From Usitatibacter sp. (GTDB taxonomy: Bacteria > Pseudomonadota > Gammaproteobacteria > Burkholderiales > Usitatibacteraceae), in contig DASPNE010000005.1 of assembly GCA_035626705.1 (NCBI GenBank), positions 45,929 through 109,928 on the forward strand: DNA of 64,000 nucleotides, in the 5' to 3' direction. Position 1 is the stretch's first letter. The number at the start of each line of letters is the position of its first letter. The position numbers were made by a program, and so were the translations under genes. The notes beneath the pieces were generated by a model. It had not been told where the DNA came from, did no database searches, and worked only from the letters and a program-made list of their open reading frames with translations. Shown piece by piece: positions 24,167-37,390 of this stretch.

Positions 24167-24243
24167 GCGCCCGTAGCTCAGTTGGATAGAGTACCTGGCT
24201 ACGAACCAGGGGGTCGTGGGTTCAAATCCTGCCGGGCGCGCCA
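24167..24243 (+). tRNA. tRNA-Arg (anticodon ACG), CCA encoded; integration target of the island
   Basis: Manual fold: acceptor GCGCCCG/CGGGCGC, D-arm GCTC..GAGT, anticodon arm CCTGG-CTACGAA-CCAGG, T-arm GTGGG-TTCAAAT-CCTGC (two G-U pairs). TATAAT at 24150-24155. Confidence 0.92.
24199..24243 (+). repeat. attL core: 3' 45 nt of tRNA-Arg (anticodon loop to CCA)
   Basis: CTACGAACCAGGGGGTCGTGGGTTCAAATCCTGCCGGGCGCGCCA, identical to 37346-37390. Confidence 0.9.
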
Positions 24244-24325: not shown

Positions 24326-25441
24326 TCAAGCATTCGCCACCCGTAGAACGGTACACGTTCCCGGGCGCCTCAAGACGAGGTTCGCCTGCGAGATCAGTCG
24401 CCCGATATCGGCGCTCGCGTAGTGACCCGCCATCGAGCGGCTTGCGTGGCCGAGCAACACTTCCCGGTCCTCCCTAGAGACCCCTGCGGCGCGCAGCCGC
24501 GCTCCAAATGTGTGTCTCAGATCGTGAACTCGCACCCGCGAAAAATCTCGAGGCGCATCGAGTCCGAATTCGCCTTTCCAGGCGGCGGCTGCCACTTTGC
24601 GGGCATTCTTCCATGCGGTGTTGTTCATCTTCCCGACGGGCTTTCCTCGATACGGAAAGACCCAAACCTTGTCCTTGTCGCGCTGGGCCTGGACGATCGA
24701 CCAAGCGACGTCGTTTAGGACCGCGACATGCGCGCGCTTGGTCTTGTAAGCCTCCGCTGGAATCACGAATACGCTGCGGCCTACTTCCGGCACGAACACT
24801 TCCCAACTCCATCGGAGGGAGCAGACATTGCCCGCGCGTAAGCCCGTGTTGACAGCGAAGAGGGCCATCCGCGCCAGATGAGCCGGAAGTCGGGGGAACA
24901 AGCGGTCCTGTTCTTCCCATGTGATCGGGTAGGGTGGCCGACGGCTTTCGGGAAGGAGGGTTATTTGCGGTGGCACACAGTCGAGCCATGGCTTGCCTTC
25001 GTCATCGCGATAGACGCGCGCCGCCCGGTTGAGGATGGTCCGGACGACCTTCAATCCGTGGTTGATGGTTGTGGGGCTTACGCCTACGGACAGCCGGTCC
25101 GCTACGAACGCTCGGAGCGTACCGTCGTGGACCAGCCTGGGTTCGAGCGTCCCGACGTAGGAGAGTAGTTGCCGCACGTGCCTCGCACTGTCCGAGACTC
25201 TTCGCTTCCCACGGGAGTCGAAAAGGTATTGAGCTGCGCAATCCGAAAACCGTGGGCGTCTATTTGCCTTTTCGTAAAGCTCAGCCTCGACCCTAGCGAT
25301 CTCCTGATGCAGCCGGTCCTCCGCTTCTTGATCGCTAACGGCGCCGAGACGCGCAAAGATTCGAACACCTCGATGCTCCTTGTCGATGATCCGGTGACCG
25401 GCCGAGTTGAGAGTGATACCGGGGGTTCGTGTGGCGGTCAT
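24326..25441 (-). CDS. int: Tyrosine-type site-specific integrase
   Basis: 371 aa. The catalytic region has ...TGLRAGNVCSLRW..., HDLRHTFGARLRAAGVS, LLGHASRSMAGHYA (R..HxxR..H..Y). Sits adjacent to the tRNA att site. Confidence 0.93.
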   Translation of the reverse strand: MTATRTPGITLNSAGHRIIDKEHRGVRIFARLGAVSDQEAEDRLHQEIARVEAELYEKANRRPRFSDCAAQYLFDSRGKRRVSDSARHVRQLLSYVGTLEPRLVHDGTLRAFVADRLSVGVSPTTINHGLKVVRTILNRAARVYRDDEGKPWLDCVPPQITLLPESRRPPYPITWEEQDRLFPRLPAHLARMALFAVNTGLRAGNVCSLRWSWEVFVPEVGRSVFVIPAEAYKTKRAHVAVLNDVAWSIVQAQRDKDKVWVFPYRGKPVGKMNNTAWKNARKVAAAAWKGEFGLDAPRDFSRVRVHDLRHTFGARLRAAGVSREDREVLLGHASRSMAGHYASADIGRLISQANLVLRRPGTCTVLRVANA

Positions 25442-25505: not shown

Positions 25506-25844
25506 ATGGATAAGCCAATCGACTGGCGAGGTTCGTCACTCGATGATCTGCGCGAGTTTCCCGAAGAGGCTCGTAAGCAGGCGGGTCATGACCTTCGGAA
25601 GCTGCAGCGCGGCCAGGCTCCAGATGACTGGCGGTCGTTTCCCGAGGTCGGGCCTGGTGCGAACGAGATCCGCATCGATTGCGCGGATGGCTGGTTCAGG
25701 GTCATGTACGTGGCAAAGTTTGAAGAGGCCATTTACGTCCTTCACAGCTTTCAGAAGGCGACACGAAAGACGAGCAAGAAGGACGTTCAGATTGCAGAAA
25801 CCCGCTATCGCGCGGTTCTGCGTGAAAGGAAGGAGCGGAAATGA
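25506..25844 (+). CDS. RelE/ParE-superfamily toxin, phage Gp49/HigB-like
   Basis: 112 aa. WRGSSLDDLREFPEEARKQAGHDLRKLQRGQAPDDWRSFPEVGPGANEIRI..FRVMYVAKFEEAIYVLHSFQKATRKTSKKDVQIAETRY matches the Gp49-type toxin pattern. Overlaps the next gene by 4 nt. Confidence 0.85.
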   Translation: MDKPIDWRGSSLDDLREFPEEARKQAGHDLRKLQRGQAPDDWRSFPEVGPGANEIRIDCADGWFRVMYVAKFEEAIYVLHSFQKATRKTSKKDVQIAETRYRAVLRERKERK

Positions 25845-26173
25845 CGATTGATACGAAATCCCGTCATCGGACGAAGGCCGACGGGAATGTCTTTTTGGAT
25901 CTTGGATTTACGCCGAAAGAGGCGAAGCGCCTCCTTAAGGAGGCTGATGCCCAGATCGACGAGTCGATTCGCCTAAAGCAGCAGCTGATGGACGAAATCG
26001 CCGTGTGGATGAAGGAAACGAGCGTGACTCAGGCAGTGGCAGCTCGAGTGCTGCAGGTGACTCGTCCTCGAGTCTCCGACGTGGTCAATCATAAGGTCGA
26101 AAAGTTTACGATCGACGCACTGGTAGGAATGTTGTCGAAGATTGGCAAGCAGGTGCGCCTTGCTGTCCAGTGA
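25841..26173 (+). CDS. XRE-family HTH antitoxin (HigA-like)
   Basis: 110 aa. ETSVTQAVAARVLQVTRPRVSDVVNHKVEKFTIDALVGMLSKIG is an HTH followed by the typical C-terminus of this antitoxin class. ATGA overlap with the toxin gene. Confidence 0.85.
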   Translation: MTIDTKSRHRTKADGNVFLDLGFTPKEAKRLLKEADAQIDESIRLKQQLMDEIAVWMKETSVTQAVAARVLQVTRPRVSDVVNHKVEKFTIDALVGMLSKIGKQVRLAVQ

Positions 26174-26208: not shown

Positions 26209-27090
26209 GTGCTGCTCGAACATGAGCCGTCGAACCGCGAACTTGGCGTGCTTGTAGATACCTTGGCCCCTTGGGCGGTCGGGGCAAAAGGTACGCTGCC
26301 GGAGCGCCTGACAAGTGAAGCAACAGCAGCCGGGGAGCCGGCTGCCCACGCCGCCGAACTTGTTCACCTTCTTCGTGCCCCCCTAAGCGCCGCCGAGTGC
26401 TTTCTCGACAACCTCACTGGTCTGTGGCGGTATGAATTTGGGGAGCCATTTGAAGTTGGAGCCGAGCAGGTTGTCGGCACTAACATCTGGCTCCCCGTGA
26501 ATCACTTGCTTCAAGCGCTTCAAACTGTGCATCAGCGAGTGCACGGCAATCAGCGAGAGGCTTTCCTCAATCGCTTGGCCGTAGCAGCGATGCATCGAAT
26601 AGCCCTGGCTGAGATGATTCCGGGCCGACGCACCGCCTCCGACGTACCAATGGACTTTGAGGTTGTAGGAATGGGAGCGGGAAACACCACAATCGATTGG
26701 CATGTCCGGCCAGTTGGGCAGCGTCCCGTTCTCTTGGATGTCAAGCGTAGAACTACTGATTTTCTTCAACAGATGGAGATGCATCAAGGCGGACCCGAGG
26801 TGCAACCGCCTGCGCACGACGCGGCGCTCATGTTTCGAAGTGTTGAACAGAAGTTTCGTCCAGCAGACCCAGATCAGATACTCCAGGGCGCTTGGATCGT
26901 GACCGATATCAAGCAACAAGAAGGGCGGCTCAATGACGCCTTTGCCGCACTAGATTCCGCGAAGGTACATTTCGCTGTGCTCGGCGACTGGGAGCCAGAC
27001 GGTTGCTTGCTCGTGAAACGACAGCTGGACCGCGAATACCTGTCCGCACTGTTGCGCATCGAAGCGTCAGCGCGGTTCACCTTCTCGTAG
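26209..27090 (+). CDS. Hypothetical protein (island cargo); possible PD-(D/E)xK-like motif
   Basis: 293 aa from GTG 26209 (start uncertain). No family recognised. DFEVVG...TTIDWHV-x11-VLLDVKRR (D163, D177, K179) fits a beta-strand D / (D/E)xK arrangement. Confidence 0.55.
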   Translation: MLLEHEPSNRELGVLVDTLAPWAVGAKGTLPERLTSEATAAGEPAAHAAELVHLLRAPLSAAECFLDNLTGLWRYEFGEPFEVGAEQVVGTNIWLPVNHLLQALQTVHQRVHGNQREAFLNRLAVAAMHRIALAEMIPGRRTASDVPMDFEVVGMGAGNTTIDWHVRPVGQRPVLLDVKRRTTDFLQQMEMHQGGPEVQPPAHDAALMFRSVEQKFRPADPDQILQGAWIVTDIKQQEGRLNDAFAALDSAKVHFAVLGDWEPDGCLLVKRQLDREYLSALLRIEASARFTFS

Positions 27091-27118: not shown

Positions 27119-27940
27119 CTAGAGAAAGCTATCGCTGCGAAGCTTGGCTACGTACGCCAAGAAATAGCGCTTGTAGACCGGAAACGTCCTGAGCGCCAGC
27201 ACGCCGGCGTCTCGTGTTCCAGCCTTTGAAAGGGCCTTCTGGAGATCCTCATCCACGAGTCGGTGCGATATCTCGTACCCGACAAACGTCTTCAACGGAA
27301 ACCAGAAGTCGCCAGCAGATTGGGGCCTGCCCGATCGCTTCGGAATTCCCATCCCAGACGTGATGATCCGCCGAGCAAAGGGACGCTCGACGAAAGACGT
27401 GCCTTTGATGATTCCATAGGGCGAGTTCCGATGGCGCTCCGTACGATGATGGCCGCTTCCCGGGAACATCCGCTCGACGGCTTCGCGTGGGTAGACGCCA
27501 ATCTCGACGGTATCCAAGAGCAGCGGCATTTGATGAAACGTCGCGCGACGTATGGCCTTTAGCGCTTCGGTTTGTGGCGTCCATCCAGAAAACAGCCGGG
27601 CCGCCCACGGCTTTCCCGTGTTCCGCTTGTATTCGACCCGCATGACTTCGGTGAGCTGTTGGGTCTTACCAACGTACTCCTCGAACGAACGTCGATACTT
27701 GGCCGGCTGGCGTCTAGAACGAAGTAACTCGCGATAGGCGCGCTCCAGCTCGAGATAGACAATTTCCGAATCGTGGGGGTCACATCGGATTCGATCCAAC
27801 AGGCGCGCCATGGCCCATTGTCCATCACTCTTCGTAGAGTGGTCTAACGCGCTCGCCTTCGGCACGCCAGACAACACCGCCACCGGGTGCCGGTAGCTCA
27901 CCTGATGAGCTTGGAGCAGTATACGCTCAGTGGCAGCCAA
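27119..27940 (-). CDS. Hypothetical protein (island cargo)
   Basis: The ORF is open from TTG 27940. ATG 27811 (MARLLDRIRCDPHD..) is a more conventional start and would leave a 150-bp divergent promoter region. No family recognised. Confidence 0.5.
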   Translation of the reverse strand: MAATERILLQAHQVSYRHPVAVLSGVPKASALDHSTKSDGQWAMARLLDRIRCDPHDSEIVYLELERAYRELLRSRRQPAKYRRSFEEYVGKTQQLTEVMRVEYKRNTGKPWAARLFSGWTPQTEALKAIRRATFHQMPLLLDTVEIGVYPREAVERMFPGSGHHRTERHRNSPYGIIKGTSFVERPFARRIITSGMGIPKRSGRPQSAGDFWFPLKTFVGYEISHRLVDEDLQKALSKAGTRDAGVLALRTFPVYKRYFLAYVAKLRSDSFL

Positions 27941-27961: not shown

Positions 27962-28225
27962 ATGAAACGCAAGCGGCGGGATGAGGACTCCGAGATCGCG
28001 GAGATTCTTGGGCCATTTCGCCGAGCTGCGGCCACGGCGTCGCTCGGACTAGTGCTGGGCCTGGGATGGGTCGTCTGTGCCATCGTGGGGGCCGCGGAGG
28101 CAGGGGTGGCGGCGCCAGTCGTCCGGCTGTTCACCACGGTCTTTGGCTGGGGTGCGCTCGGACTGCTGAGCCTGAGTATTGTCCGGTTCAGCTGGGCATA
28201 TCTGAGACTGAGGTTTCCAGGTTAG
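27962..28225 (+). CDS. Small two-TM membrane protein (cassette gene A1)
   Basis: ATG 27962 after AGGAAAGG. MKRKRRDEDSEIAEILGPFRRAAATASLGLVLGLGWVVCAIVGA...FGWGALGLLSLSIVRFSW. The ORF is open from 27887. Confidence 0.55.
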   Translation: MKRKRRDEDSEIAEILGPFRRAAATASLGLVLGLGWVVCAIVGAAEAGVAAPVVRLFTTVFGWGALGLLSLSIVRFSWAYLRLRFPG

Positions 28226-28261
28226 TTCGGACGAGTTGCGCGGCGGAGGAGGGCGCAGGGC

Positions 28262-29074
28262 ATGGAATTGATCGTCGGCGTCTTTGTGATCGTCGTCTTG
28301 TGGCTTGGTGTGAAAGCGCTTGCCACTCTCGGGTCGGAGCCGAAGAGCGACGCCTCTAGAGGAGGGGCCAAGCGGGTCGAAGCCACGAGCAAGCAATCGG
28401 TCCTTGACTCAAATATCGGATGGTTGCGTGAGCGATGGGTAGAGGCTGAAACGGCGAAAGCGGCGGGCGCCTTGAGTTACTTCCCGAAATGGTTCTTTGA
28501 TCCGGCGACGGATAAGCAATTGACCCGGTTGCAGAGGATGGGTGTTCGCCTGTCGGGAGGGGAGCTTACGAAGGGCGCAGCCTCCGACATCATCGGCCTG
28601 TTTGAGGATCCGGAGAGCTCCGATATGGATGTTCTAAAGTTCTTCAAGATGAAGTTGTCGCCGGAGCAGAAGAACGAGACGCGAGTCCGTCACGAGATCA
28701 GCAAGCTCTTCCAAGACCCGGAGAAGCTCACTGCATGGCGCGGCCGCCCTGCAGATGGGATGCAGAAGGAGTTCTATCGGTTCTTTTCACTCAAGATCCC
28801 GTCTGGGCTGACATACGAAGAAGCAGAGACGACGATTCGAGAAGCAGACATACCGGACGCCGAATTTGATGCTTGGCGGGATTTCGAGAATGTGTGTGAC
28901 GAGCTTGCGGATAGAAGCACGCTCGAGGACTACGGTCTACGCAAGCCCTCCTTGCCGGTCATCCGCGCTGCCTACGATGACCTACGAAAGACGGCACCTA
29001 AGGACGCCAACGACCCAATGTCGGTTGCAGAAAAGATACTGCAATTGAAGCCAGAGCTCGCGCGGGAGAGGTAG
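28262..29074 (+). CDS. N-terminally membrane-anchored hypothetical protein (cassette gene A2)
   Basis: 270 aa. GGAGGG lies 8 nt upstream. TM helix MELIVGVFVIVVLWLGVKALATL, then a soluble region with loosely repeated ~35-aa segments (..DKQLTRLQRMGVRLSGGELTKGAASDII.. and ..QKEFYRFFSLKIPSGLTYEEAETTI..). Confidence 0.65.
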   Translation: MELIVGVFVIVVLWLGVKALATLGSEPKSDASRGGAKRVEATSKQSVLDSNIGWLRERWVEAETAKAAGALSYFPKWFFDPATDKQLTRLQRMGVRLSGGELTKGAASDIIGLFEDPESSDMDVLKFFKMKLSPEQKNETRVRHEISKLFQDPEKLTAWRGRPADGMQKEFYRFFSLKIPSGLTYEEAETTIREADIPDAEFDAWRDFENVCDELADRSTLEDYGLRKPSLPVIRAAYDDLRKTAPKDANDPMSVAEKILQLKPELARER

Positions 29075-29076
29075 GG

Positions 29077-29730
29077 ATGCCCAACTGGCTGCTAAAGACG
29101 ATGGATCACCCTCTGTGGCGTGGTCTAGAGGGGGTCCACACGCTCGTCTGGGTCTATAGCACCTTAACCACCGGCGCCGTAGCTCGCGTTGGGTACCTGC
29201 AGGGGATGCCCACGATATGGATCGTCGTTGGAGCAATCGTTCTCTTTGTTCTGCTCATATCGATCGGATACGCAATCTACCTATACACGGGCTTCTACTC
29301 TCTGCATGAGGCATCGATCAAGGCTTACAACGAGCTGCGGCATTTGGGTCTCGGCGCACTCTCCAAGGGCTACTCGAACGTAGCTGGAAGTGACGCAGAC
29401 GGCGATGGTGTTTTGGACGAAGTGGGAACGCACTTGAGCCAAGTGGTGACGATCTACGGACGAGACCCTCCCGCGACAGTTCTTGACCCTCTGCCACTGT
29501 GGCTTTTCCCCCAAGGAAACATTTCCCAAGGCGCAAGAGAGTTTCGCCGATACGGTGAGACGACGGCGTTTTACAAGGACCTGGCGATTCGTCGAAGCGA
29601 TTTGCGCGTTGCCATCAAAGCCATTCGAGGGTACTTCGAGCACGAGGAGGCCGTACGCGAGGGGCGGGCTAAGGCGAAGGCAGCAGAGGCCGTAGCAGCC
29701 GGAGAATCGGATCCGGATGCGGCTTCATAG
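29077..29730 (+). CDS. Membrane protein, unknown function (cassette gene A3)
   Basis: 217 aa. Starts 2 nt after the A2 stop. Central TM helix TIWIVVGAIVLFVLLISIGYAIYLY and an acidic/Ala-rich tail. Confidence 0.65.
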   Translation: MPNWLLKTMDHPLWRGLEGVHTLVWVYSTLTTGAVARVGYLQGMPTIWIVVGAIVLFVLLISIGYAIYLYTGFYSLHEASIKAYNELRHLGLGALSKGYSNVAGSDADGDGVLDEVGTHLSQVVTIYGRDPPATVLDPLPLWLFPQGNISQGAREFRRYGETTAFYKDLAIRRSDLRVAIKAIRGYFEHEEAVREGRAKAKAAEAVAAGESDPDAAS

Positions 29731-29776
29731 CCCGCCGGCAACAGAAAATTCTAGGTGAGGTAGTGCGGGCGCCCTG

Positions 29777-30427
29777 ATGGCTTCTCGAAACGTCAAGCAG
29801 CGTCTTCTCGAAGATATGCGAGACGGGCTCCGACAATCGGTTGAGTACTTCAGCTCGAGCAACAAAGGCGAGCGAGAGCGCTGGTGTTGCCAGGAGTTTG
29901 TGCGGAACCTCAATGTTCGGCCCTGGAGTAGATCCTTTGTTTCACCCGATGAGGATCCGCCCGACGTCATCTATCGCGATGCGCGGTTCGAGGTAAAGGA
30001 GGTACTTGATGCTGGAAGGCGGCGTCACCACGAGTACCGTCAAGCGCTAGAAGAGGCGCTGGGCGCCAAGGACCCGGCGGAATTGATGAAAGAGTACAGT
30101 CCCAAAGACATCACGCCCCTCCAAGTCGGCGAACTCGTGCAGTCGCAAGTTCACAAATTGCGGCGGAAGTACGACCCCAAGCTCCAGCGGTCGCTAGACT
30201 TGCTGGTGTATGTAAACCTCTTGGAGACCTTGCTGGGCAGGGGTGCAATGCCCAATCCCGCGGCGTTTGAGAATTCCGGGTGGCGCTCAGTCTCAGCGCT
30301 CTTCGGGTGGAATTCGCTAGTCTTTTATGCGGAGCGGTCTGCTCCGAAGCTGATTCGGGATTCGGCAGGGGCAGTCGTGCTAAGAGCAAGAAAGCTGGTT
30401 GAGAGCCAGCCCAATCGAAAAAAGTAG
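29777..30427 (+). CDS. PD-(D/E)xK nuclease-like protein (cassette gene A4)
   Basis: 216 aa. ..ERERWCCQEFVRNL...DEDPPDVIYRDARFEVKEVLDAGRRRH.. gives helix-E, PD (D63) and ExK (E71, K73) in canonical order. It resembles what I recall of the DUF1780 putative endonuclease family (unverified). Confidence 0.6.
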   Translation: MASRNVKQRLLEDMRDGLRQSVEYFSSSNKGERERWCCQEFVRNLNVRPWSRSFVSPDEDPPDVIYRDARFEVKEVLDAGRRRHHEYRQALEEALGAKDPAELMKEYSPKDITPLQVGELVQSQVHKLRRKYDPKLQRSLDLLVYVNLLETLLGRGAMPNPAAFENSGWRSVSALFGWNSLVFYAERSAPKLIRDSAGAVVLRARKLVESQPNRKK

Positions 30428-30435
30428 GAACGGAG

Positions 30436-31026
30436 ATGCTGCCCGAGTTTTCAGAGACTAAGAGGATGTTTGCCCGGTTCTTCCAGACATACGCCCGGCG
30501 GCGTGCGCGGGCGGTGTCTCCGCTTGCTGAAGTTCAAGTTCGTTTTCTGCACGAGGGCAGAGGCATGAGGGTTGCGCGCGCTGATCAATCTCAATCGAGC
30601 AGTGCCGTCCAGCTCCTCTCCAGCACGATGGAAATCAAGTTCGATGAAATACCTGAACTGACCCTCCAGAAGACGATGGCCAAGTTCGACGAGATGATTC
30701 TGGATATGGTGCGCCAGCAGACGGGGTTCGCCTTGGAGCGGATCGGCGAGGAGATTCCAGACAGTCAGAGTGTCGATGCCAAGGGCAAGACGCTCGACGC
30801 CGAGCTCATGCTTCAGGTTCTAGAGACGCTTCAGATGGAGTTCCACTCCGATGGTCAACCCCACCAACTCCATGTCTTCGGGGGGCTCTTCACTGCCGAG
30901 CGGCAAAAGGCAATAGACGAGCAGTTTCAGAACGATCCCGACTTGCAGATACGGCTTGATGAGGTGATCGCAAAGAAGAGAGAAGAATGGCGTGCTAGAG
31001 AGGCTTGTCGAAAACTGGTTGGATAG
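30436..31026 (+). CDS. Hypothetical protein (cassette gene A5)
   Basis: 196 aa. AGGAACGGAG precedes the ATG, 8 nt after the A4 stop. No motif recognised. Confidence 0.6.
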   Translation: MLPEFSETKRMFARFFQTYARRRARAVSPLAEVQVRFLHEGRGMRVARADQSQSSSAVQLLSSTMEIKFDEIPELTLQKTMAKFDEMILDMVRQQTGFALERIGEEIPDSQSVDAKGKTLDAELMLQVLETLQMEFHSDGQPHQLHVFGGLFTAERQKAIDEQFQNDPDLQIRLDEVIAKKREEWRAREACRKLVG

Positions 31027-32617
31027 CGCCAGCGAGCGGAGCTATCAACGCTGCTTCTGCCAGATGCTGACCGGGCAGGGGTTTCACATCGTGCACAGCA
31101 CTGAGCACACGCCGCTTGAGTTCGGCAAGGATGTTATTGCGGTTTCTCCTGATGGCAAGCTCGTTGGCTATCAACTCAAGGGGCATCCTGACGGAACGCT
31201 TAAACCGCGGGACTTCGATAGCATTCGGGGCCAGCTGGAACAGCTTGCGACGCTGGCCGTAGCGATCGCGGGCTTTGAGGGAAGGGTTCCAGAAGAGTGC
31301 TACCTGGTTACCAACGGCGATATCGATGAGGCCGTCTATCACCAAATTCAGCTTCTCAACGCGAGCCTCGTTCAGCGCGGCCATCCTCCAGGAAAGATAA
31401 GAACAATTACGCGCGGGCAGCTGTTGGACTGGGCGCAGTCGCTTGGGCTGTCCCTATGGCCTTCCGAGATGCAGGACTTCGGAAATCTCGTAAAGCTGCT
31501 CAATTGCAGCGGAGATGAGATGTTCCCAGTCCAGATTTTTGATCCTCTTCTGCGCAATACGCTGAACTTCGAGGGCGAGCTCAAGAGCGCGGAATTGAGT
31601 CGCCGGGTGACGAGTGCGGGCGTAATGACTGCCGTAGCGCTTCATTCGTTCTCGCGTCAGAGGAACCATGTCGCGGAGATCACTGCGTGGACCATGTTTG
31701 CTACCTACTCGATTGCCGCTTGCGAGAAGAATGGCATCGACTATTCGAAGCATTGCAGTGAGGCCGTGCTTTCGGCACGAGATAGCATCTACGATCTCCT
31801 TGGACTGCTCTGCGAGGAAGCATCTGAGCGGAGAGTCATGTTCGAGGGTGATCCGTACAGTGAATTTGCTTTCTATCGGCCGCGGTTGCTTCTGATCTCC
31901 GCCCTCATGGCGGTCTACTGGATTTGGTCACAGGGAAGCACATGGACGCGGCCTCACCACAAGGCCCTCGTCGAGAAGCTCATTCCCCAAGCTCTCCCTC
32001 CTAGGTGGCTTTGGGGTGAAGGGGCGATCCCGAGTTTCTTGACTTACATTTGGTTTCGCAAAATGGTCGCGCCATCAGATGGCAACGACATGATCGTCGC
32101 GAAAGTTCTGGCGGCCCTGCTGCGCAACAAGTTAGGTGATGACGGAGAGCCGCTGGCATCCCCGTATTACGACGCGGAGGAGGTGGCGCAGCATCAATAC
32201 CGCGAGCTTCTTGGTTGTCCCGACCCATTCGAAGGTGACAGCTTCGAAGGTCATAGCTACTCATGCGAAAGCCTGTTGATGTGTCTCGTTCGGTCAGACT
32301 TGAAGATGGTTTGCCAGGAGCTCTGGCCGGATTTCACAAAGATCGGGCATGAGCGCGTTGTGCCGGATCAGGCCTGGCAGTTCGGCCTCTACCGTACGGG
32401 GGATGCAGCGACGAATGAGACGAAGATGTATCCGCCGATGATGCGATGGAGCGAGCTTCAGGAAATCTGTCAGGAATCCATGGCGATAGACGTTCCCGCA
32501 GCGTTGAAGGCCGACCCTGGTCTACTGCTGCTCTTTGTCAACCTCTTCCCGTTTCGCGCCACTTTCTCCGCAGTGAGGTTTTTGCACCGAGAGTTTGACG
32601 AAAAGACCGCTGTCTGA
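30992..32617 (+). CDS. Large hypothetical protein with Mrr-like N-terminal nuclease motif (cassette gene A6)
   Basis: 541 aa from GTG 30992, overlapping A5 by 35 nt (start uncertain). The N-terminus ..SERSYQRCFCQMLTGQGFHIVHSTEHTPLEFGKDVIAVSPDGKLVGYQLKG.. gives E..D47..Q61-x-K63, as in Mrr-type restriction folds. The remaining ~430 aa are helix-rich and unassigned. Confidence 0.6.
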   Translation: MLERLVENWLDSASERSYQRCFCQMLTGQGFHIVHSTEHTPLEFGKDVIAVSPDGKLVGYQLKGHPDGTLKPRDFDSIRGQLEQLATLAVAIAGFEGRVPEECYLVTNGDIDEAVYHQIQLLNASLVQRGHPPGKIRTITRGQLLDWAQSLGLSLWPSEMQDFGNLVKLLNCSGDEMFPVQIFDPLLRNTLNFEGELKSAELSRRVTSAGVMTAVALHSFSRQRNHVAEITAWTMFATYSIAACEKNGIDYSKHCSEAVLSARDSIYDLLGLLCEEASERRVMFEGDPYSEFAFYRPRLLLISALMAVYWIWSQGSTWTRPHHKALVEKLIPQALPPRWLWGEGAIPSFLTYIWFRKMVAPSDGNDMIVAKVLAALLRNKLGDDGEPLASPYYDAEEVAQHQYRELLGCPDPFEGDSFEGHSYSCESLLMCLVRSDLKMVCQELWPDFTKIGHERVVPDQAWQFGLYRTGDAATNETKMYPPMMRWSELQEICQESMAIDVPAALKADPGLLLLFVNLFPFRATFSAVRFLHREFDEKTAV

Positions 32618-32690: not shown

Positions 32691-33671
32691 CTAAGGCTGG
32701 GCCGTCGCGAATGCTTGTTCGATCTCCGCTAGCAGCTCTTTCCTCGTCGTCGCGGGAATCTCTGCATCAGGAATGTAAGTATCGAAGCTCGAGGTGCGCA
32801 CGCTGATCGAGTCGTCCAGCAAAGCGGGGAGATCCTCGACCCCTTCCAGTCTGTGGAACTGAATCTTGTGCGGCTGGGCACCGTTAGCGATCCGGATGAA
32901 GGCGACGATGTTGCGGATCGAGACGTCAATGAGCTGCAGCCCGCGGATCATCGGCTCGGGTTCCCAGTTCACAGTGTGCCGGCGCGATCGCTTGCTGCGC
33001 GTGCCTGGCACGTCGGGCCCGGCTCTCTCGATCGCGTAGAAGGTAGAGCCCGTGTCTGAGCCGCCGAGGTACTTCATCTCCTCAGGGGGCGGCGCAACTC
33101 CGAACTGGTGCTCCAAGCCGAATGCGATCTTGACCCCCGAGGATCGGATGCGAAACCCGTGTTTGAGGCTGTTGTACTCGGCCTGGCTCATCTCGTTGAG
33201 GAACTCGCCGGCGAAGATGCTCCAAAGCCGCCCGAACGACTCGGCCGTCTTCGGCCAGCCGTTCTCCTGCGTGCAATGCGCGAACACCCGCTGGGCCAGG
33301 CCCGCCCAGGTCCGATTCCACTGGGTGATCTCGCTGTGGAGCGTGGGATCGCCCTTCGAAATGCGCTCGATCACCCCGCGCAGCAGATCAGTCTTGGCGA
33401 GTGCGACCCATGCGTAGGGCGCCTGCGGCGCCTGCACCGCAGCGGCAGCGAGGGTCATCAGCGTCTCGATGCCGTGCAGGTAGGCCATGCGCGTAGCGGT
33501 GGCCACACGGCGCTTATGCTCGGCCGAGTCGAGCTTCTCTGCGTGCGCCTCGGCAAGGTAGCTGAAGAAGGCGGGATCGATCGAGTCCAGGAACTCTGTG
33601 GTCCTCGTCGCGGGATCAGGATCCCAGAGGCTGTACGGCTCGTCGTTGACGATGAACGAGAAATGATTCAT
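32691..33671 (-). CDS. Hypothetical protein (island operon B, distal gene)
   Basis: 326 aa, ATG 33671. No family recognised; no TM helix or signal peptide. Confidence 0.6.
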   Translation of the reverse strand: MNHFSFIVNDEPYSLWDPDPATRTTEFLDSIDPAFFSYLAEAHAEKLDSAEHKRRVATATRMAYLHGIETLMTLAAAAVQAPQAPYAWVALAKTDLLRGVIERISKGDPTLHSEITQWNRTWAGLAQRVFAHCTQENGWPKTAESFGRLWSIFAGEFLNEMSQAEYNSLKHGFRIRSSGVKIAFGLEHQFGVAPPPEEMKYLGGSDTGSTFYAIERAGPDVPGTRSKRSRRHTVNWEPEPMIRGLQLIDVSIRNIVAFIRIANGAQPHKIQFHRLEGVEDLPALLDDSISVRTSSFDTYIPDAEIPATTRKELLAEIEQAFATAQP

Positions 33672-33857: not shown

Positions 33858-35939
33858 CTAACCCCAGTCGACATCGGGATAGGCCGGATTCAATGACTTG
33901 ATCTCAGCGTGGATCTGCTGAAGGGCCGACTTTGTGTACTCGCGGGCCGTCATATCGACATTTCTAAATTCACCAAAGAGCATTCGAAGATCTGTTACGT
34001 GACAACCAAGGAAGGCAATGGTCTTGAGGGTTTTGGCGACCCGGATCAATCGCTTCGGATCCCGGTGCAAGAGGGGATACACGTGTTCGCCTCCGCTAAC
34101 CCAATGCGTTCCGTTGTTTTCCGCGGCATTGGCAAGCTTGTCAGCCAATCGATCGATCATCAGCTCGAAGAGGATGATGGTCGCATCAGGCGCCTTGCGG
34201 GAGGTTTGCTCATAGAGGAGTCCGAACATCGACGCGGCGCCATCGTCATATCGCGATTCCCAGAAGAGGGGCAAGTATTCCTCAATCTCCGCAAAGTGAA
34301 TGGCGTCCTGCTCCAGAACCTTCCAAAAGTGCCACGCCAGGGAAGATCGAATCGAATTCGAGCCGCGTCGAATTTGCTGTTGTAACAGGTTCTCGAAGGG
34401 GGTTGGATCGAAATCTCCTAAGTCCTCGTAATGATGCTTGCGGAAGAAGGCGAAGTACATGAGGAGGGCGGCGAGCTCGCGATCAAGGTAGTCGGCATTA
34501 GCATCGAGTAGTACAGAGAGAACCTCGAAGGCTTCTTGGGCCGTCAAGTCCCGGTAGTTGCCAAATACCTGGGCAAGGGCTCGCAAAACGCGGGGGAACT
34601 CGCGATTCGCTTGCAGCGCCTCAAACGCGAGCCGCCCAACCCGCTGCTGCTCTGCAGGTGCCCAGTCGAATGCTGAGCCATCGGAGTTTTTGGTGCACCT
34701 ACGCCTTTGCACGAAGCACTGCAGAACGTGTATTGCCTGTATGCGGATGTACAGATTCGGTTCGCGTAAGTATCGCTCGATGATATCGACGATCTCGCCA
34801 TAGAGATCAGGGCGGTTGAGTTCGACGATTCTCATCATGAGCCAGCAAAGATGCCCGCGAACCGTGGTGATGAGGCCAACATCCTCCCCCCGAAGGGTCT
34901 GTAGGTGGTAGTTGAATCGTCCCTCGGAATCGCTGGGGTCGTTTTCGCCAGAAGGATCGGGATCGGGGTCGTTACACAGGGCTCGCAGAATCCAGACTCC
35001 ATCCTCAATTGCGCCGTCCTTGACGAACTGCTGCGCGATACGAGCGAGGTTCTCACGCGCGTGTCTGTCTGCGAGCCAGTCCGTGCCGCCAACCGCGACT
35101 GTCCTGCGCTTCACGTACTCGAAAGCCCGCCTGTCGTTGTCTCCGAGCTGGCAACTCAGGGTCTCGACCAACAGAGGCGATACGTCGCCGTCGACGGACA
35201 CACTACGTATGGCGTCGTAGATCGTCCGTTCGAAGATCTTGCGGAAATGCCCTTGACCCGAGGTGAAGTAGACGAGATCGATATTCTCGAGTTTGCCGAA
35301 GTCGAGTTGCGTTAGAGCATGAATCGCATCGTTGCCTTCAACGAAGAATGCCCAGTTCTGTACAAGGATGATTCTCTCGTGCCCGCTCGTCGCCAGCTGG
35401 AGGTTCTTGGTTGGCAGGAGATCCAAGAAGGCTCGAAGCGAAGTCCCCTTTGAATCAACCCAACGCGCTTCAGCGGTGCCGCTGAAAGTGACGGTCTTCA
35501 GGCTGGGGATTCGACGATATTGAAAGCCGTCGGCCTCAAAATCGTCAGAGGTCGGGTTCGACGCGATGGTCGCCTCGAGACGATCAGCCAAGTCGATTGA
35601 GAAGGTACGAAGGTCTGCCTTCTTGAGCGTGAAGTACGGCGTGGAGATCAGGAAGCCCTCAATGCCTCGCCGAGTGAGCTCGTCTTTGAGAACTCCGACC
35701 ACCTCGCTCCACACTTTCTCTTTGGCAAGAGCCTTTCCGTCCTCCACAAGCCTGAAAATCTCGACGGCGACCTTTCTCCCTCCGGCATCCTCGAGTTGGT
35801 AGTCGAAGTCCTTCTTCGACGAAGGGTTGGGGCGGACGTCGCGACCGGTGATGGCGTACGAGGTTTGACGCACATCGCCGAGATGGCGCATGAATCTCTC
35901 TATCGCTTCCTCTTCCCACTGTTCTTTCGACGCAGTCAT
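33858..35939 (-). CDS. Large hypothetical protein, helical-repeat C-terminal region (island operon B, proximal gene)
   Basis: 693 aa, ATG 35939. The N-terminal ~230 aa are mixed alpha/beta (..KKDFDYQLEDAGGRKVAVEIFRL..). The C-terminal ~400 aa look like HEAT/ARM-style helical repeats. No NTPase motif seen. Confidence 0.65.
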   Translation of the reverse strand: MTASKEQWEEEAIERFMRHLGDVRQTSYAITGRDVRPNPSSKKDFDYQLEDAGGRKVAVEIFRLVEDGKALAKEKVWSEVVGVLKDELTRRGIEGFLISTPYFTLKKADLRTFSIDLADRLEATIASNPTSDDFEADGFQYRRIPSLKTVTFSGTAEARWVDSKGTSLRAFLDLLPTKNLQLATSGHERIILVQNWAFFVEGNDAIHALTQLDFGKLENIDLVYFTSGQGHFRKIFERTIYDAIRSVSVDGDVSPLLVETLSCQLGDNDRRAFEYVKRRTVAVGGTDWLADRHARENLARIAQQFVKDGAIEDGVWILRALCNDPDPDPSGENDPSDSEGRFNYHLQTLRGEDVGLITTVRGHLCWLMMRIVELNRPDLYGEIVDIIERYLREPNLYIRIQAIHVLQCFVQRRRCTKNSDGSAFDWAPAEQQRVGRLAFEALQANREFPRVLRALAQVFGNYRDLTAQEAFEVLSVLLDANADYLDRELAALLMYFAFFRKHHYEDLGDFDPTPFENLLQQQIRRGSNSIRSSLAWHFWKVLEQDAIHFAEIEEYLPLFWESRYDDGAASMFGLLYEQTSRKAPDATIILFELMIDRLADKLANAAENNGTHWVSGGEHVYPLLHRDPKRLIRVAKTLKTIAFLGCHVTDLRMLFGEFRNVDMTAREYTKSALQQIHAEIKSLNPAYPDVDWG

Positions 35940-36265: not shown

Positions 36266-37087
36266 ATGACTCTCCTTGTGTGTTGGGCTGGCATTGACCC
36301 TCATGGGACATCCTCCCTTTATATTGCAAGTGACAGCCGACTTTCCTGGGACAAGTCGACCGTCTTCGACTCGGGTCGCAAGGTCTTTGCATTTTCTGGA
36401 TGGCCTGACATTCTTGGCTATTGCGGGGACGTTCTCTTCCCGTCGCTGGCACTCAATCAGATCGTCAACTTGGCGGACGCCGGTCTCCTGTTTGCCCCGA
36501 ATTTCTCTCCGAAGCAGAAGTTTCAAGCGATTGTCGACAAGCTTAACGACCTCGTCGCGGACTACCCAGCCGCGCGCGCGGGTTTGGCGGTGAACAAGCT
36601 GACGATCGTTCATGGATCGCGCGATCCTCATGCAAAGGGCGTCTTCTTCTGCCATTCGATCTCTTGGGCGAATGGAAAATGGGGAGGGGAGGAGAAGCAG
36701 ATGCCCGCTGCGTCGGATGTCCTATTTGTGGAGGGGACCGGCGCACGCGCTTTCAATGAAAACCTTGTTCGGTATCGAGATGGACCAAACAGGAGGACCA
36801 GTCGTGCGGTTTTTCATTGCTTCTGTGATGCCCTCGCACATCCGGTGGATTACACGGTGGGAGGACCTCCCCAACTCGTTGGATTAATTCGGAATCCAGA
36901 CTCTGCCGCGCTCACGTTTGGAGTCGTTTATGAGGGAAAGCGGACATTTTTGGGGGCTCATGTCGACAACCTGAGAAGCTTTGATAAAGTGCAGTGGCGG
37001 AACGCCAACTTTGAGCTCTGCGACGGCCGCACTTTGAAGAAGCTTCCAAATGCACAACCACAGCCTGACCCCTTGCGCAGGTTGTGA
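36266..37087 (+). CDS. Hypothetical protein; candidate N-terminal-nucleophile (proteasome/HslV-like) hydrolase
   Basis: 273 aa. MTLLVCWAGIDPHGTSSLYIASDSRLSWDKSTVFDSGRKVFAF has Thr directly after Met, a beta-strand, A-x-D-S-R, and a Lys 16 residues after the Asp. This is the same D-to-K spacing as proteasome beta D17/K33. Confidence 0.6.
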   Translation: MTLLVCWAGIDPHGTSSLYIASDSRLSWDKSTVFDSGRKVFAFSGWPDILGYCGDVLFPSLALNQIVNLADAGLLFAPNFSPKQKFQAIVDKLNDLVADYPAARAGLAVNKLTIVHGSRDPHAKGVFFCHSISWANGKWGGEEKQMPAASDVLFVEGTGARAFNENLVRYRDGPNRRTSRAVFHCFCDALAHPVDYTVGGPPQLVGLIRNPDSAALTFGVVYEGKRTFLGAHVDNLRSFDKVQWRNANFELCDGRTLKKLPNAQPQPDPLRRL

Positions 37088-37345: not shown

Positions 37346-37390
37346 CTACGAACCAGGGGGTCGTGGGTTCAAATCCTGCCGGGCGCGCCA
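37346..37390 (+). repeat. attR core: duplicate of the 3' 45 nt of tRNA-Arg
   Basis: Identical to 24199-24243. The preceding sequence (..GGTTCAAACC) does not continue the tRNA, so this is a remnant and not a second tRNA gene. Confidence 0.9.

Follow-up and report, generated by a model that had tools for sequence, protein, structure and literature searches.

The window discussed here is a stretch of 64,000 nucleotides from a Usitatibacter sp. metagenome-assembled genome (MAG), and it carries, from position 27,962 to 32,617, a tightly packed cassette of six co-directional genes (A1 to A6). A first, sequence-only reading of the DNA had taken this cassette for a single system, in which a membrane-associated sensing module is coupled to nuclease effectors. 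Comparative synteny gives a different picture. We are close to certain that the cassette is composite and that its last two genes, A5 (30436..31026, + strand) and A6 (30992..32617, + strand), are the conserved unit. As judged from gene neighbourhoods in related loci, the cassette is made up of three unrelated parts: A1-A3, A4, and A5-A6. The A5-A6 pair is inherited as a unit, with constant gene order and a constant overlap, and is present in at least eight bacterial phyla. A6 is a protein of 541 aa with a predicted nuclease domain followed by a helical domain, and A5, its obligate upstream neighbour, is a protein of 196 aa. The overall explanation that we favour, with some confidence, is that of a composite cassette in which A5-A6 would be an autonomous, translationally coupled nuclease module that defends its host against mobile genetic elements independently of any nucleoside triphosphatase (NTPase). 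Taken separately, the claim that A5-A6 is a defence module is, in our judgement, evenly balanced.

The evidence for dividing the cassette comes from 61 distinct loci with A6 homologues at 26–77% identity, assembled from a species-level genome collection and contig look-ups, which belong to Pseudomonadota, Poribacteria, Thermodesulfobacteriota, Bacteroidota, Actinomycetota, Chloroflexota, Planctomycetota, Acidobacteriota, and Lentisphaeria. When A1-A6 and five other proteins of the surrounding island were used as tblastn queries against 59–66 loci, A5 and A6 alone gave matches at the A6 loci, and A1-A4 and the five other island proteins had no match there below E = 0.3. Homologues of A1-A4 were found within 10 kb of an A6 homologue at 0 of the 61 loci, even where the relatives share 61–77% identity, and neither A1-A3 nor A5-A6 was found near A4 homologues in 7 loci. 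It could nevertheless be proposed that a single operon encodes all six proteins as one system, with A1-A3 perceiving a signal and then switching on the nucleases A4 and A6, since all six genes are co-directional with gaps of 2–46 bp and one overlap, encode three transmembrane (TM) proteins and two nuclease folds, and have no detected internal terminator on the + strand. Unrelated systems are, however, commonly packed tightly within defence islands. Moreover, A2 and A3 lack relatives in the collections scanned, and their clusters hold no independent full-length member. The six-gene system fails because its homologues are not syntenic elsewhere (none of 61 A6 loci and none of 7 A4 loci unite A1-A4 with A5-A6), which was set beforehand as the finding that refutes it, and we now consider it very improbable. 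The membrane-sensing module of the sequence-only reading is likewise not a general feature, as TM proteins are rare among the neighbours of A5-A6 in other loci.

The association of A5 with A6 is of another order. Of the 61 loci, 56 extend far enough upstream of A6 to be informative, and all 56 have an A5-type gene directly upstream of it (53 detected by tblastn, 2 as divergent open reading frames (ORFs), and 1 in frameshifted form), and the identities of the A5 and A6 homologues to the window proteins are correlated (r = 0.93). The two divergent ORFs, of 219–225 codons from stop to stop, occupy the same place and share the overlap and the C-terminal motif. In an all-against-all clustering of 541 neighbour ORFs, no further gene family proved to be generally associated with the pair; the clustering brought out only a type ISP restriction–modification (R-M) gene, specific to a lineage and confined to Poribacteria-type loci, and a family of ~300 aa that has no annotation. 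Because about one-third of 45 loci have no co-directional gene within 150 nt on either side of A5-A6, the pair is able to form a transcription unit by itself. In the window, A1-A4 may be co-transcribed with it (gaps of 8–46 bp), yet they stand outside the conserved module. A5, which had been described from the sequence as carrying no motif, thus proves to be the one obligate partner of A6 and to have an invariant motif at its C-terminus. The frameshifted A5 is that of Martelella lutilitoris (locus L037, NZ_VCLB01000007.1, 9420-10035), where the frame is broken in a poly-A run before the overlap and the C-terminal KKKKEEWRARESNRTLVG falls in another frame; the break may mark a pseudogene or a slippage site, or it may stem from an error in sequencing.

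The two genes are joined by a dual-coding overlap of 35 nt (30992..31026, + strand), read out of frame, with the GTG start codon of A6 inside A5. In 56 of the 57 aligned sequences (56 loci and the window), which come from distant phyla, the A5 stop lies exactly 35 nt past the A6 start, and in most of them A6 starts with GTG or TTG. The core of the overlap, GAAAAYTGGTTGGATAG, hardly varies in its nucleotides, since the end of A5 (...RKLVG and its stop) and the beginning of A6 (...ENWLDS) are both encoded there; conservation of this strictness is unusual in a dual-coding stretch. Since the overlap is so strictly conserved, we infer that translation of A5 and A6 is coupled and their ratio fixed. 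A programmed frameshift fusion of A5 and A6 was also considered, and it was dropped: no canonical slippery heptamer was seen by eye, and the A6 homologues align from their own start.

A5 is acidic and, in its AlphaFold2 (AF2) model, mostly helical (mean predicted local distance difference test score, pLDDT, 71.6). The alignment shows M1-L2-P3, R21, E40-G41, R48, and K116-G117 to be invariant, together with the C-terminal motif K-x-E-x-W-R-A-R-E-A-x-R-x-L-V. Many gene callers start the A5 homologues (P0176, P0240-P0266) at an internal Met near residue 44, which yields proteins of 150–153 aa; the 196-aa form appears to be the real one, because the N-terminal M-L-P, R21, and E40-G41 are invariant. 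Foldseek found no fold match for the A5 model, and searches of Pfam, NCBIfam, PHROGs, and PADLOC found no match for its sequence. Pfam scans of about ten diverse A5 homologues returned noise only, and a precomputed PF25209 tag on one homologue (P0279) was not reproduced by the Pfam scan and was set aside.

For A6, the AF2 model is good (pLDDT 85.8; predicted template-modelling score, pTM, 0.82). Its N-terminal domain (approximately aa 1–160; 30992..31471, + strand) has the alpha-beta-beta-beta-alpha-beta core of the PD-(D/E)xK fold in the model, an assignment to which AF2, Foldseek, and the alignment all contribute. Among structures in the PDB, Foldseek placed it closest to NucS (2vld, probability 0.99) and EndoMS (5gke, 0.96), with lower matches to EcoO109I (0.57), Can2 (0.41), and XPF (0.10), and in the viral library BFVD it matched Mrr-domain, MmcB-like, and VRR-NUC proteins with probabilities of 0.9–1.0. 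The whole-protein E-values are weak (0.004–0.6) because only about 130 of the 541 residues align. In 35 sequences, down to 26% identity, E15, H39, E43, D47, Q61, K63, N108, G109, and E113 are invariant, and the motif E43-G45-K46-D47 ... Q61-L62-K63-G64 is present and invariant. The catalytic-type residues map to helix 1 and to strands 48–51 and 57–63 of the model. The Mrr-like D..QxK motif that had been read from the letters therefore stands, as E15, D47, and Q61-x-K63 are invariant within a domain that folds like NucS and Mrr, and the structural check that had been recommended, AlphaFold followed by Foldseek, did return a restriction-endonuclease-like fold (probability 0.96–1.0). Because these residues are invariant across the 35 sequences, the N-terminal domain is likely an active nuclease. 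At the sequence level, A6 had no match at E ≤ 1 in Pfam, NCBIfam, PHROGs, or PADLOC, the curated nuclease families Mrr_cat and NucS included; a sequence-profile search of the PDB was empty for full-length A6 and gave spurious kinase and WD40 matches for the N-terminal domain. Going by its modelled fold and its motif, A6 is a predicted PD-(D/E)xK protein, and it falls in no curated nuclease family by sequence.

Among its structural matches, the nuclease domain scores best with a repair enzyme, NucS/EndoMS, and several loci do have housekeeping neighbours only. One might accordingly think that A5-A6 serves housekeeping or DNA repair and has no part in conflicts with mobile elements, for example as an endonuclease of the NucS kind that acts on mismatches or damage with the help of an accessory subunit. 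However, the match is limited to the minimal nuclease core, without the N-terminal DNA-binding domain of NucS, and the PCNA motif of NucS is also missing from the A6 match. The family is patchy over distant phyla, its contexts differ among relatives at 74–77% identity, and in the window it lies in an integrase island of foreign G+C. We give a repair role hardly any credence.

The C-terminal domain of A6 (approximately aa 161–541; 31472..32617, + strand) is mainly alpha-helical with two short beta-strands. Conserved positions include W341-G-E343, P391-Y-Y393, R204, S208, N225, E276, and E285. Foldseek gave only weak matches, to (alpha/alpha)6 toroids of GH76 and to TPR proteins (probability 0.3–0.6, TM-score ~0.3), and neither in structure nor in sequence did the domain have a convincing match.

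The A6 family is large. A word search found 181 relatives, all unnamed, and a profile search of 1.84 billion representative proteins found 1302 clusters (at 50% identity) at E ≤ 1e-3, with 618 at E ≤ 1e-30; among the best 150 clusters listed, the full-length members are of ~540 aa and are matched end to end. A literature search by locus tag and accession returned nothing on A5 or A6. The contexts in which the pair occurs are diverse, even among relatives at 74–77% identity. For example, one of these relatives is located beside an AAA_15/AAA_21 ATPase and HEPN_AbiU2, and another among insertion sequence (IS) elements with a TrwC relaxase gene near. In Geobacter pelophilus (L001, JAHCVJ010000001.1), A5-A6 lies in the part of a type I R-M operon that separates hsdS from hsdM. 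In Roseomonas, it stands alone near a gene of the H-NS family (Histone_HNS). Other contexts include a prophage or integrase island, a locus with an integrase downstream, a locus directly after ParDE in an otherwise metabolic region, and one with HEPN_AbiU2 and ParE near. When the two nearest ORFs on each side of A5-A6 were scanned (201 ORFs), the R-M and BREX families found were type ISP/IIG R-M (8), type I R-M, PglZ, and BrxL. ATPases of the PtuA/AriA/GajA/Old-like kind were also present, as were PDC-S11, PDC-S47/Abi_alpha, HEC-06, AbiGi, AbiLi, SLFN_AlbA_2, ApeA, integrases, and transposases.

Two of these neighbourhoods have further features. In Geobacter pelophilus, four more unannotated genes (282, 352, 366, and 559 aa; 11686-16518 of L001) follow A5-A6 before hsdM, the 282-aa gene product having about six hydrophobic segments, and the type I R-M operon is closely preceded by a Tn7-like TniB/rve pair. 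In six Poribacteria-type MAGs (L024, L027, L029, L039, L055, and L057), a type ISP R-M enzyme of 1000–1770 aa, with the domains Mrr_cat_2, ResIII, ISP_coupler, N6_Mtase, and Type_ISP_C, is encoded upstream of A5-A6 on the same strand, and at some Poribacteria loci (e.g., L013, L015, L023, and L027) a further protein of 800–1170 aa follows. The arrangement of ISP enzyme and A5-A6 may be lineage-specific synteny or a functional pairing.

The R-M neighbourhoods bear on another possible explanation, that A5-A6 is a two-protein, modification-dependent (type IV-like) restriction enzyme. In such an enzyme, A6 would cut modified DNA, the helical domain or A5 would read the base, and the pair would supplement neighbouring R-M systems, whose target is unmodified DNA. 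The nuclease fold of A6 is Mrr/NucS-like, as this explanation would have it, and the pair occurs inside a type I R-M operon and, at 8 neighbour ORFs, beside type ISP/IIG R-M. The helical domain is weakly like carbohydrate-binding (alpha/alpha)6 toroids, which, as speculation, could suit glycosylated bases. Precedents exist as well, one being the hsd-mrr-mcrBC neighbourhood of E. coli. Another is TgvAB, a two-gene type IV system located within type I R-M (PMC11411939). However, no match to Mrr_cat, GmrSD, SRA, McrBC, or any other modified-base reader was found in Pfam, PADLOC, or NCBIfam, the generic nuclease fold is all that A5-A6 recognisably has in common with type IV enzymes, A6 is very acidic, the adjacency to R-M is concentrated in one lineage, and DNA binding by A5-A6 is hypothetical. 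We regard a type IV-like enzyme as unlikely, and as the weightiest of the alternatives for A5-A6, ahead of a toxin–antitoxin (TA) or addiction module and of housekeeping repair, which we rank last.

In the TA explanation, A6 would be a nuclease toxin and A5 its co-translated antitoxin, and the main role of the module would be to stabilise the mobile elements that carry it, and not phage defence. The gene layout is reminiscent of this, with an upstream partner gene that overlaps the effector gene in a strictly conserved way, and A5-A6 behaves as an autonomous unit which is found in islands, near IS elements, and beside other TA pairs. On the other hand, components of type II TA systems are typically much smaller than either protein, neither a DNA-binding fold nor that of a known antitoxin could be detected in A5, and no TA family was matched in Pfam, PADLOC, or NCBIfam, nor by about ten diverse A5 homologues in Pfam. 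The family is also missing from a set of 72,556 plasmids, although such replicons often carry addiction modules. An addiction module is, in our view, decidedly unlikely.

How could A5-A6 work as the defence module that we favour? Through translational coupling at the 35-nt overlap, the two proteins would be produced jointly, in a fixed A5:A6 ratio. They would form a complex that has the A6 nuclease domain as its effector, and A5 and the helical domain of A6 would between them either keep this nuclease inactive or target it. On entry of foreign DNA, from a phage or a plasmid, the A6 nuclease would cut DNA, and the outcome would be direct restriction of the invader's DNA or death of the infected cell. 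In its most specific form, the proposal is that A5-A6 is an undescribed, widespread anti-phage or anti-plasmid system without an NTPase, in which a toroid-like helical sensor and stoichiometric A5, supplied through the 35-nt overlap, gate the nuclease. This version we put forward tentatively, as a possibility on the doubtful side.

Several observations weigh against a defensive nuclease module. Nuclease activity and a defence role are both things we infer from the genes themselves, and the part given to A5 is a guess, as its model is of moderate quality and has no recognisable fold. With a net charge of -19 and an isoelectric point of 5.2, A6 would be unusual for a DNA-binding enzyme. The A6 family is absent from the 72,556 plasmids of PLSDB (tblastn) and from the INPHARED phages, a slightly surprising result if it is a defence gene of high mobility. 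The tally of defence neighbours over the 201 ORFs is raw, takes no account of kinship, and has no background rate beside it; the type ISP neighbours come mostly from one lineage, Poribacteria; and many A5-A6 loci have ordinary metabolic or housekeeping neighbours. Finally, the defence catalogue used was PADLOC-DB v2.0.0 (2023), and it is possible that A5-A6 has already been described under another name.

The setting of the cassette in the window is a mobile one. Two direct repeats of 45 nt, the attachment (att) repeats D1, bound an integrative island of 13,147 bp at a tRNA-Arg gene of the Usitatibacter sp. MAG. The left repeat (24199-24243) is the last 45 nt of tRNA-Arg(ACG) (24167..24243, + strand; identified by ARAGORN, Rfam tRNA score 63.6 bits), and the right repeat (37346..37390, + strand) is 100% identical to these 3' 45 nt. 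The tRNA was the sole match in an Rfam scan. G+C is ~0.57 in the island and ~0.68 in its flanks, and in the G+C profile the drop coincides with the ends of the att repeats. Next to the tRNA gene is a tyrosine integrase (24326..25441, - strand; Pfam Phage_integrase, E 2.5e-17), and then a TA pair (25506..26173, + strand) in which the toxin precedes the antitoxin: a Gp49/HigB-like toxin (25506-25844, +; Pfam Gp49, 1.5e-25) and an HTH_37 antitoxin (25841-26173, +; Pfam HTH_37, 1.3e-15). The sequence-only reading had proposed an integrase island of lower G+C next to a TA pair, and the tRNA-Arg gene, the integrase, the Gp49/HTH_37 pair, and the 45-nt att repeat bear it out. Five further ORFs lie in the island: 32691-33671 (-, 326 aa), 33858-35939 (-, 693 aa), 36266-37087 (+, 273 aa), 26209-27090 (+, 293 aa), and 27119-27940 (-, 273 aa). 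The first four had no significant match in Pfam, NCBIfam, PHROGs, or PADLOC, and the fifth had none in Pfam, the one library scanned with it. In the neighbourhood of the A6 and A4 loci, homologues of the five are likewise lacking. Genes without a family assignment make up nearly the whole island.

Much of what had been read from the letters of the cassette was reproduced. The six co-directional ORFs, the intergenic gaps of 36, 2, 46, and 8 bp from A1 to A5, and the 35-bp overlap of A5 and A6 are as they had been described. G+C at third codon positions is 0.64–0.72 in all six ORFs, which fits real coding sequence. The two TM helices proposed for A1, the N-terminal one of A2, and the central one of A3 were recovered as hydrophobic segments, and a Walker-A motif, said to be missing, is indeed absent from all six proteins (pattern [AG]xxxxGK[ST]). 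A scan for promoters and terminators gave no signal above the shuffled expectation. In the deposited annotation the six genes are hypothetical, except A4, which is called a DUF1780 domain-containing protein, and a Pfam scan of A1-A6 and four other island proteins likewise had DUF1780 for A4 as its sole match. PADLOC-DB v2.0.0 (at E ≤ 1), NCBIfam, and PHROGs gave no match for A1-A6, in agreement with the earlier statement that the cassette resembles no named system.

The first of the three parts, A1-A3, consists of small membrane proteins without detectable relatives. A1 (27962..28225, + strand) is a basic protein of 87 aa with two hydrophobic segments; it had no family match in Pfam, NCBIfam, PHROGs, or PADLOC, and no tblastn match in 66 loci. 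Its ATG at 27962 is preceded by a Shine-Dalgarno-like GAGGAAAGG, and an alternative GTG start at 27887 would give 112 aa. The deposited annotation of A1 probably uses another start, because the 87-aa form is missing from the protein collection. A2 (28262..29074, +; 270 aa) has an N-terminal TM anchor (residues 1–26), and A3 (29077..29730, +; 217 aa) a central TM segment (residues 38–74). At 90% identity, the cluster of A2 is a singleton, and that of A3 holds, besides A3 itself, only a fragment of 62 aa. Neither protein had a match in Pfam, NCBIfam, PHROGs, or PADLOC, nor relatives in plasmids (tblastn) or in scans of metagenome contigs, which are sensitive to close relatives only. Of the loosely repeated segments of ~35 aa that had been noticed in A2, a single 10-residue recurrence, I..LF.DPE, is significant (z = 4.8) and the rest is weak, and the view of A2 as a repeat protein was given up for that reason.

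The second part, A4 (29777..30427, + strand), is a stand-alone gene for a DUF1780 protein of the PD-(D/E)xK type. It matches Pfam DUF1780 (PF08682) at E 1e-26 with 94.3 bits (cutoff 27) over profile positions 14–201 of 208, and PDB entry 1Y0K (PA4535, a structural-genomics protein) at 4.7e-25. According to Steczkiewicz et al. 2012 (PMC3424549), DUF1780 belongs to the PD-(D/E)xK superfamily, so that the earlier choice of A4 as a nuclease candidate was well made. The motif proposed for it also holds in substance, as P61, P62, D63, E72, and K74 are invariant in an alignment of 19 homologues; the numbering given, E71 and K73, was off by one. Its closest homologues (62, 49, 47, and 42% identity) have no adjacent A1-A3 or A5-A6, and A4 may be an independent putative nuclease gene that merely shares the island. 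Comparison of the N-terminal domain of A6 with DUF1780 by hhalign gave a probability of 0.3, indicating no relationship. A4 is a full-length member of the family, like PA4535. However, PA4535 has been described as having a migrated lysine (PD-EXX-K), and DUF1780 as restricted to Pseudomonadales, with no horizontal gene transfer (PMC3424549). The clade of A4 departs from this description in two ways: it retains the canonical E72-x-K74, and it occurs on islands, beside AbiTii, CcdAB, and other TA genes in metagenomes and in an integrative island here. Two relatives of A4 (L065, an SRR10034633 contig, and L060) lie among AbiTii, DUF6602, CcdAB, and an Unstab_antitox gene, and because of these neighbours the A4 clade looks mobile or island-borne.

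If A5-A6 is truly a defence system, a large and phylogenetically broad family that has no model in Pfam, NCBIfam, PHROGs, or PADLOC would join the bacterial immune repertoire, and the hosts that gain such immunity would be environmental bacteria, for example Poribacteria, Thermodesulfobacteriota, and many Proteobacteria. It would be a compact nuclease system of 2.2 kb in which A5 and the helical domain of A6 are regulatory parts not characterised so far. The invariant 35-nt overlap is in addition a clean natural case in which to consider how dual coding and translational coupling may fix the stoichiometry of subunits. More generally, close packing within an island says little about whether genes form a single system, as here comparative synteny split what looked like a six-gene system into three unrelated parts.

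Among known proteins and systems, the N-terminal domain of A6 is most like NucS/EndoMS and Mrr, with which it shares the alpha-beta-beta-beta-alpha-beta core and an acidic ... D ... QxK pattern, invariant in the A6 family. A6 differs from them in the helical domain of ~400 aa that follows its N-terminal nuclease, in its obligate partner of 196 aa, and in the lack of any Pfam nuclease profile match at E ≤ 1. Type II TA operons share with A5-A6 the upstream partner gene, the translational overlap, and the character of an autonomous, mobile two-gene unit; the sizes of 196 and 541 aa, the lack of a detected antitoxin DNA-binding fold, and the absence from the plasmid collection set A5-A6 apart from them. 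Shedu, one of the nuclease-based defence systems that do without an NTPase partner, joins a PD-(D/E)xK effector to a non-enzymatic regulatory region and has no ATPase or helicase gene, and in this A5-A6 is similar. However, A5-A6 has no match to Shedu or to any other system in PADLOC v2, its nuclease is N-terminal, and it has a second, obligatory gene. TgvAB is a two-protein type IV restriction system whose genes are embedded in the type I R-M cluster of VPI-2 in Vibrio cholerae (PMC11411939). It belongs to the GmrSD family, whereas A5 and A6, which are known from their genes alone, have no GmrSD-type (DUF262/DUF1524) or other family match. In its organisation, A5-A6 is like TgvAB, as it has two genes and no NTPase partner of the type sought in the sequence-only reading and, in Geobacter pelophilus, it too interrupts a type I R-M cluster.

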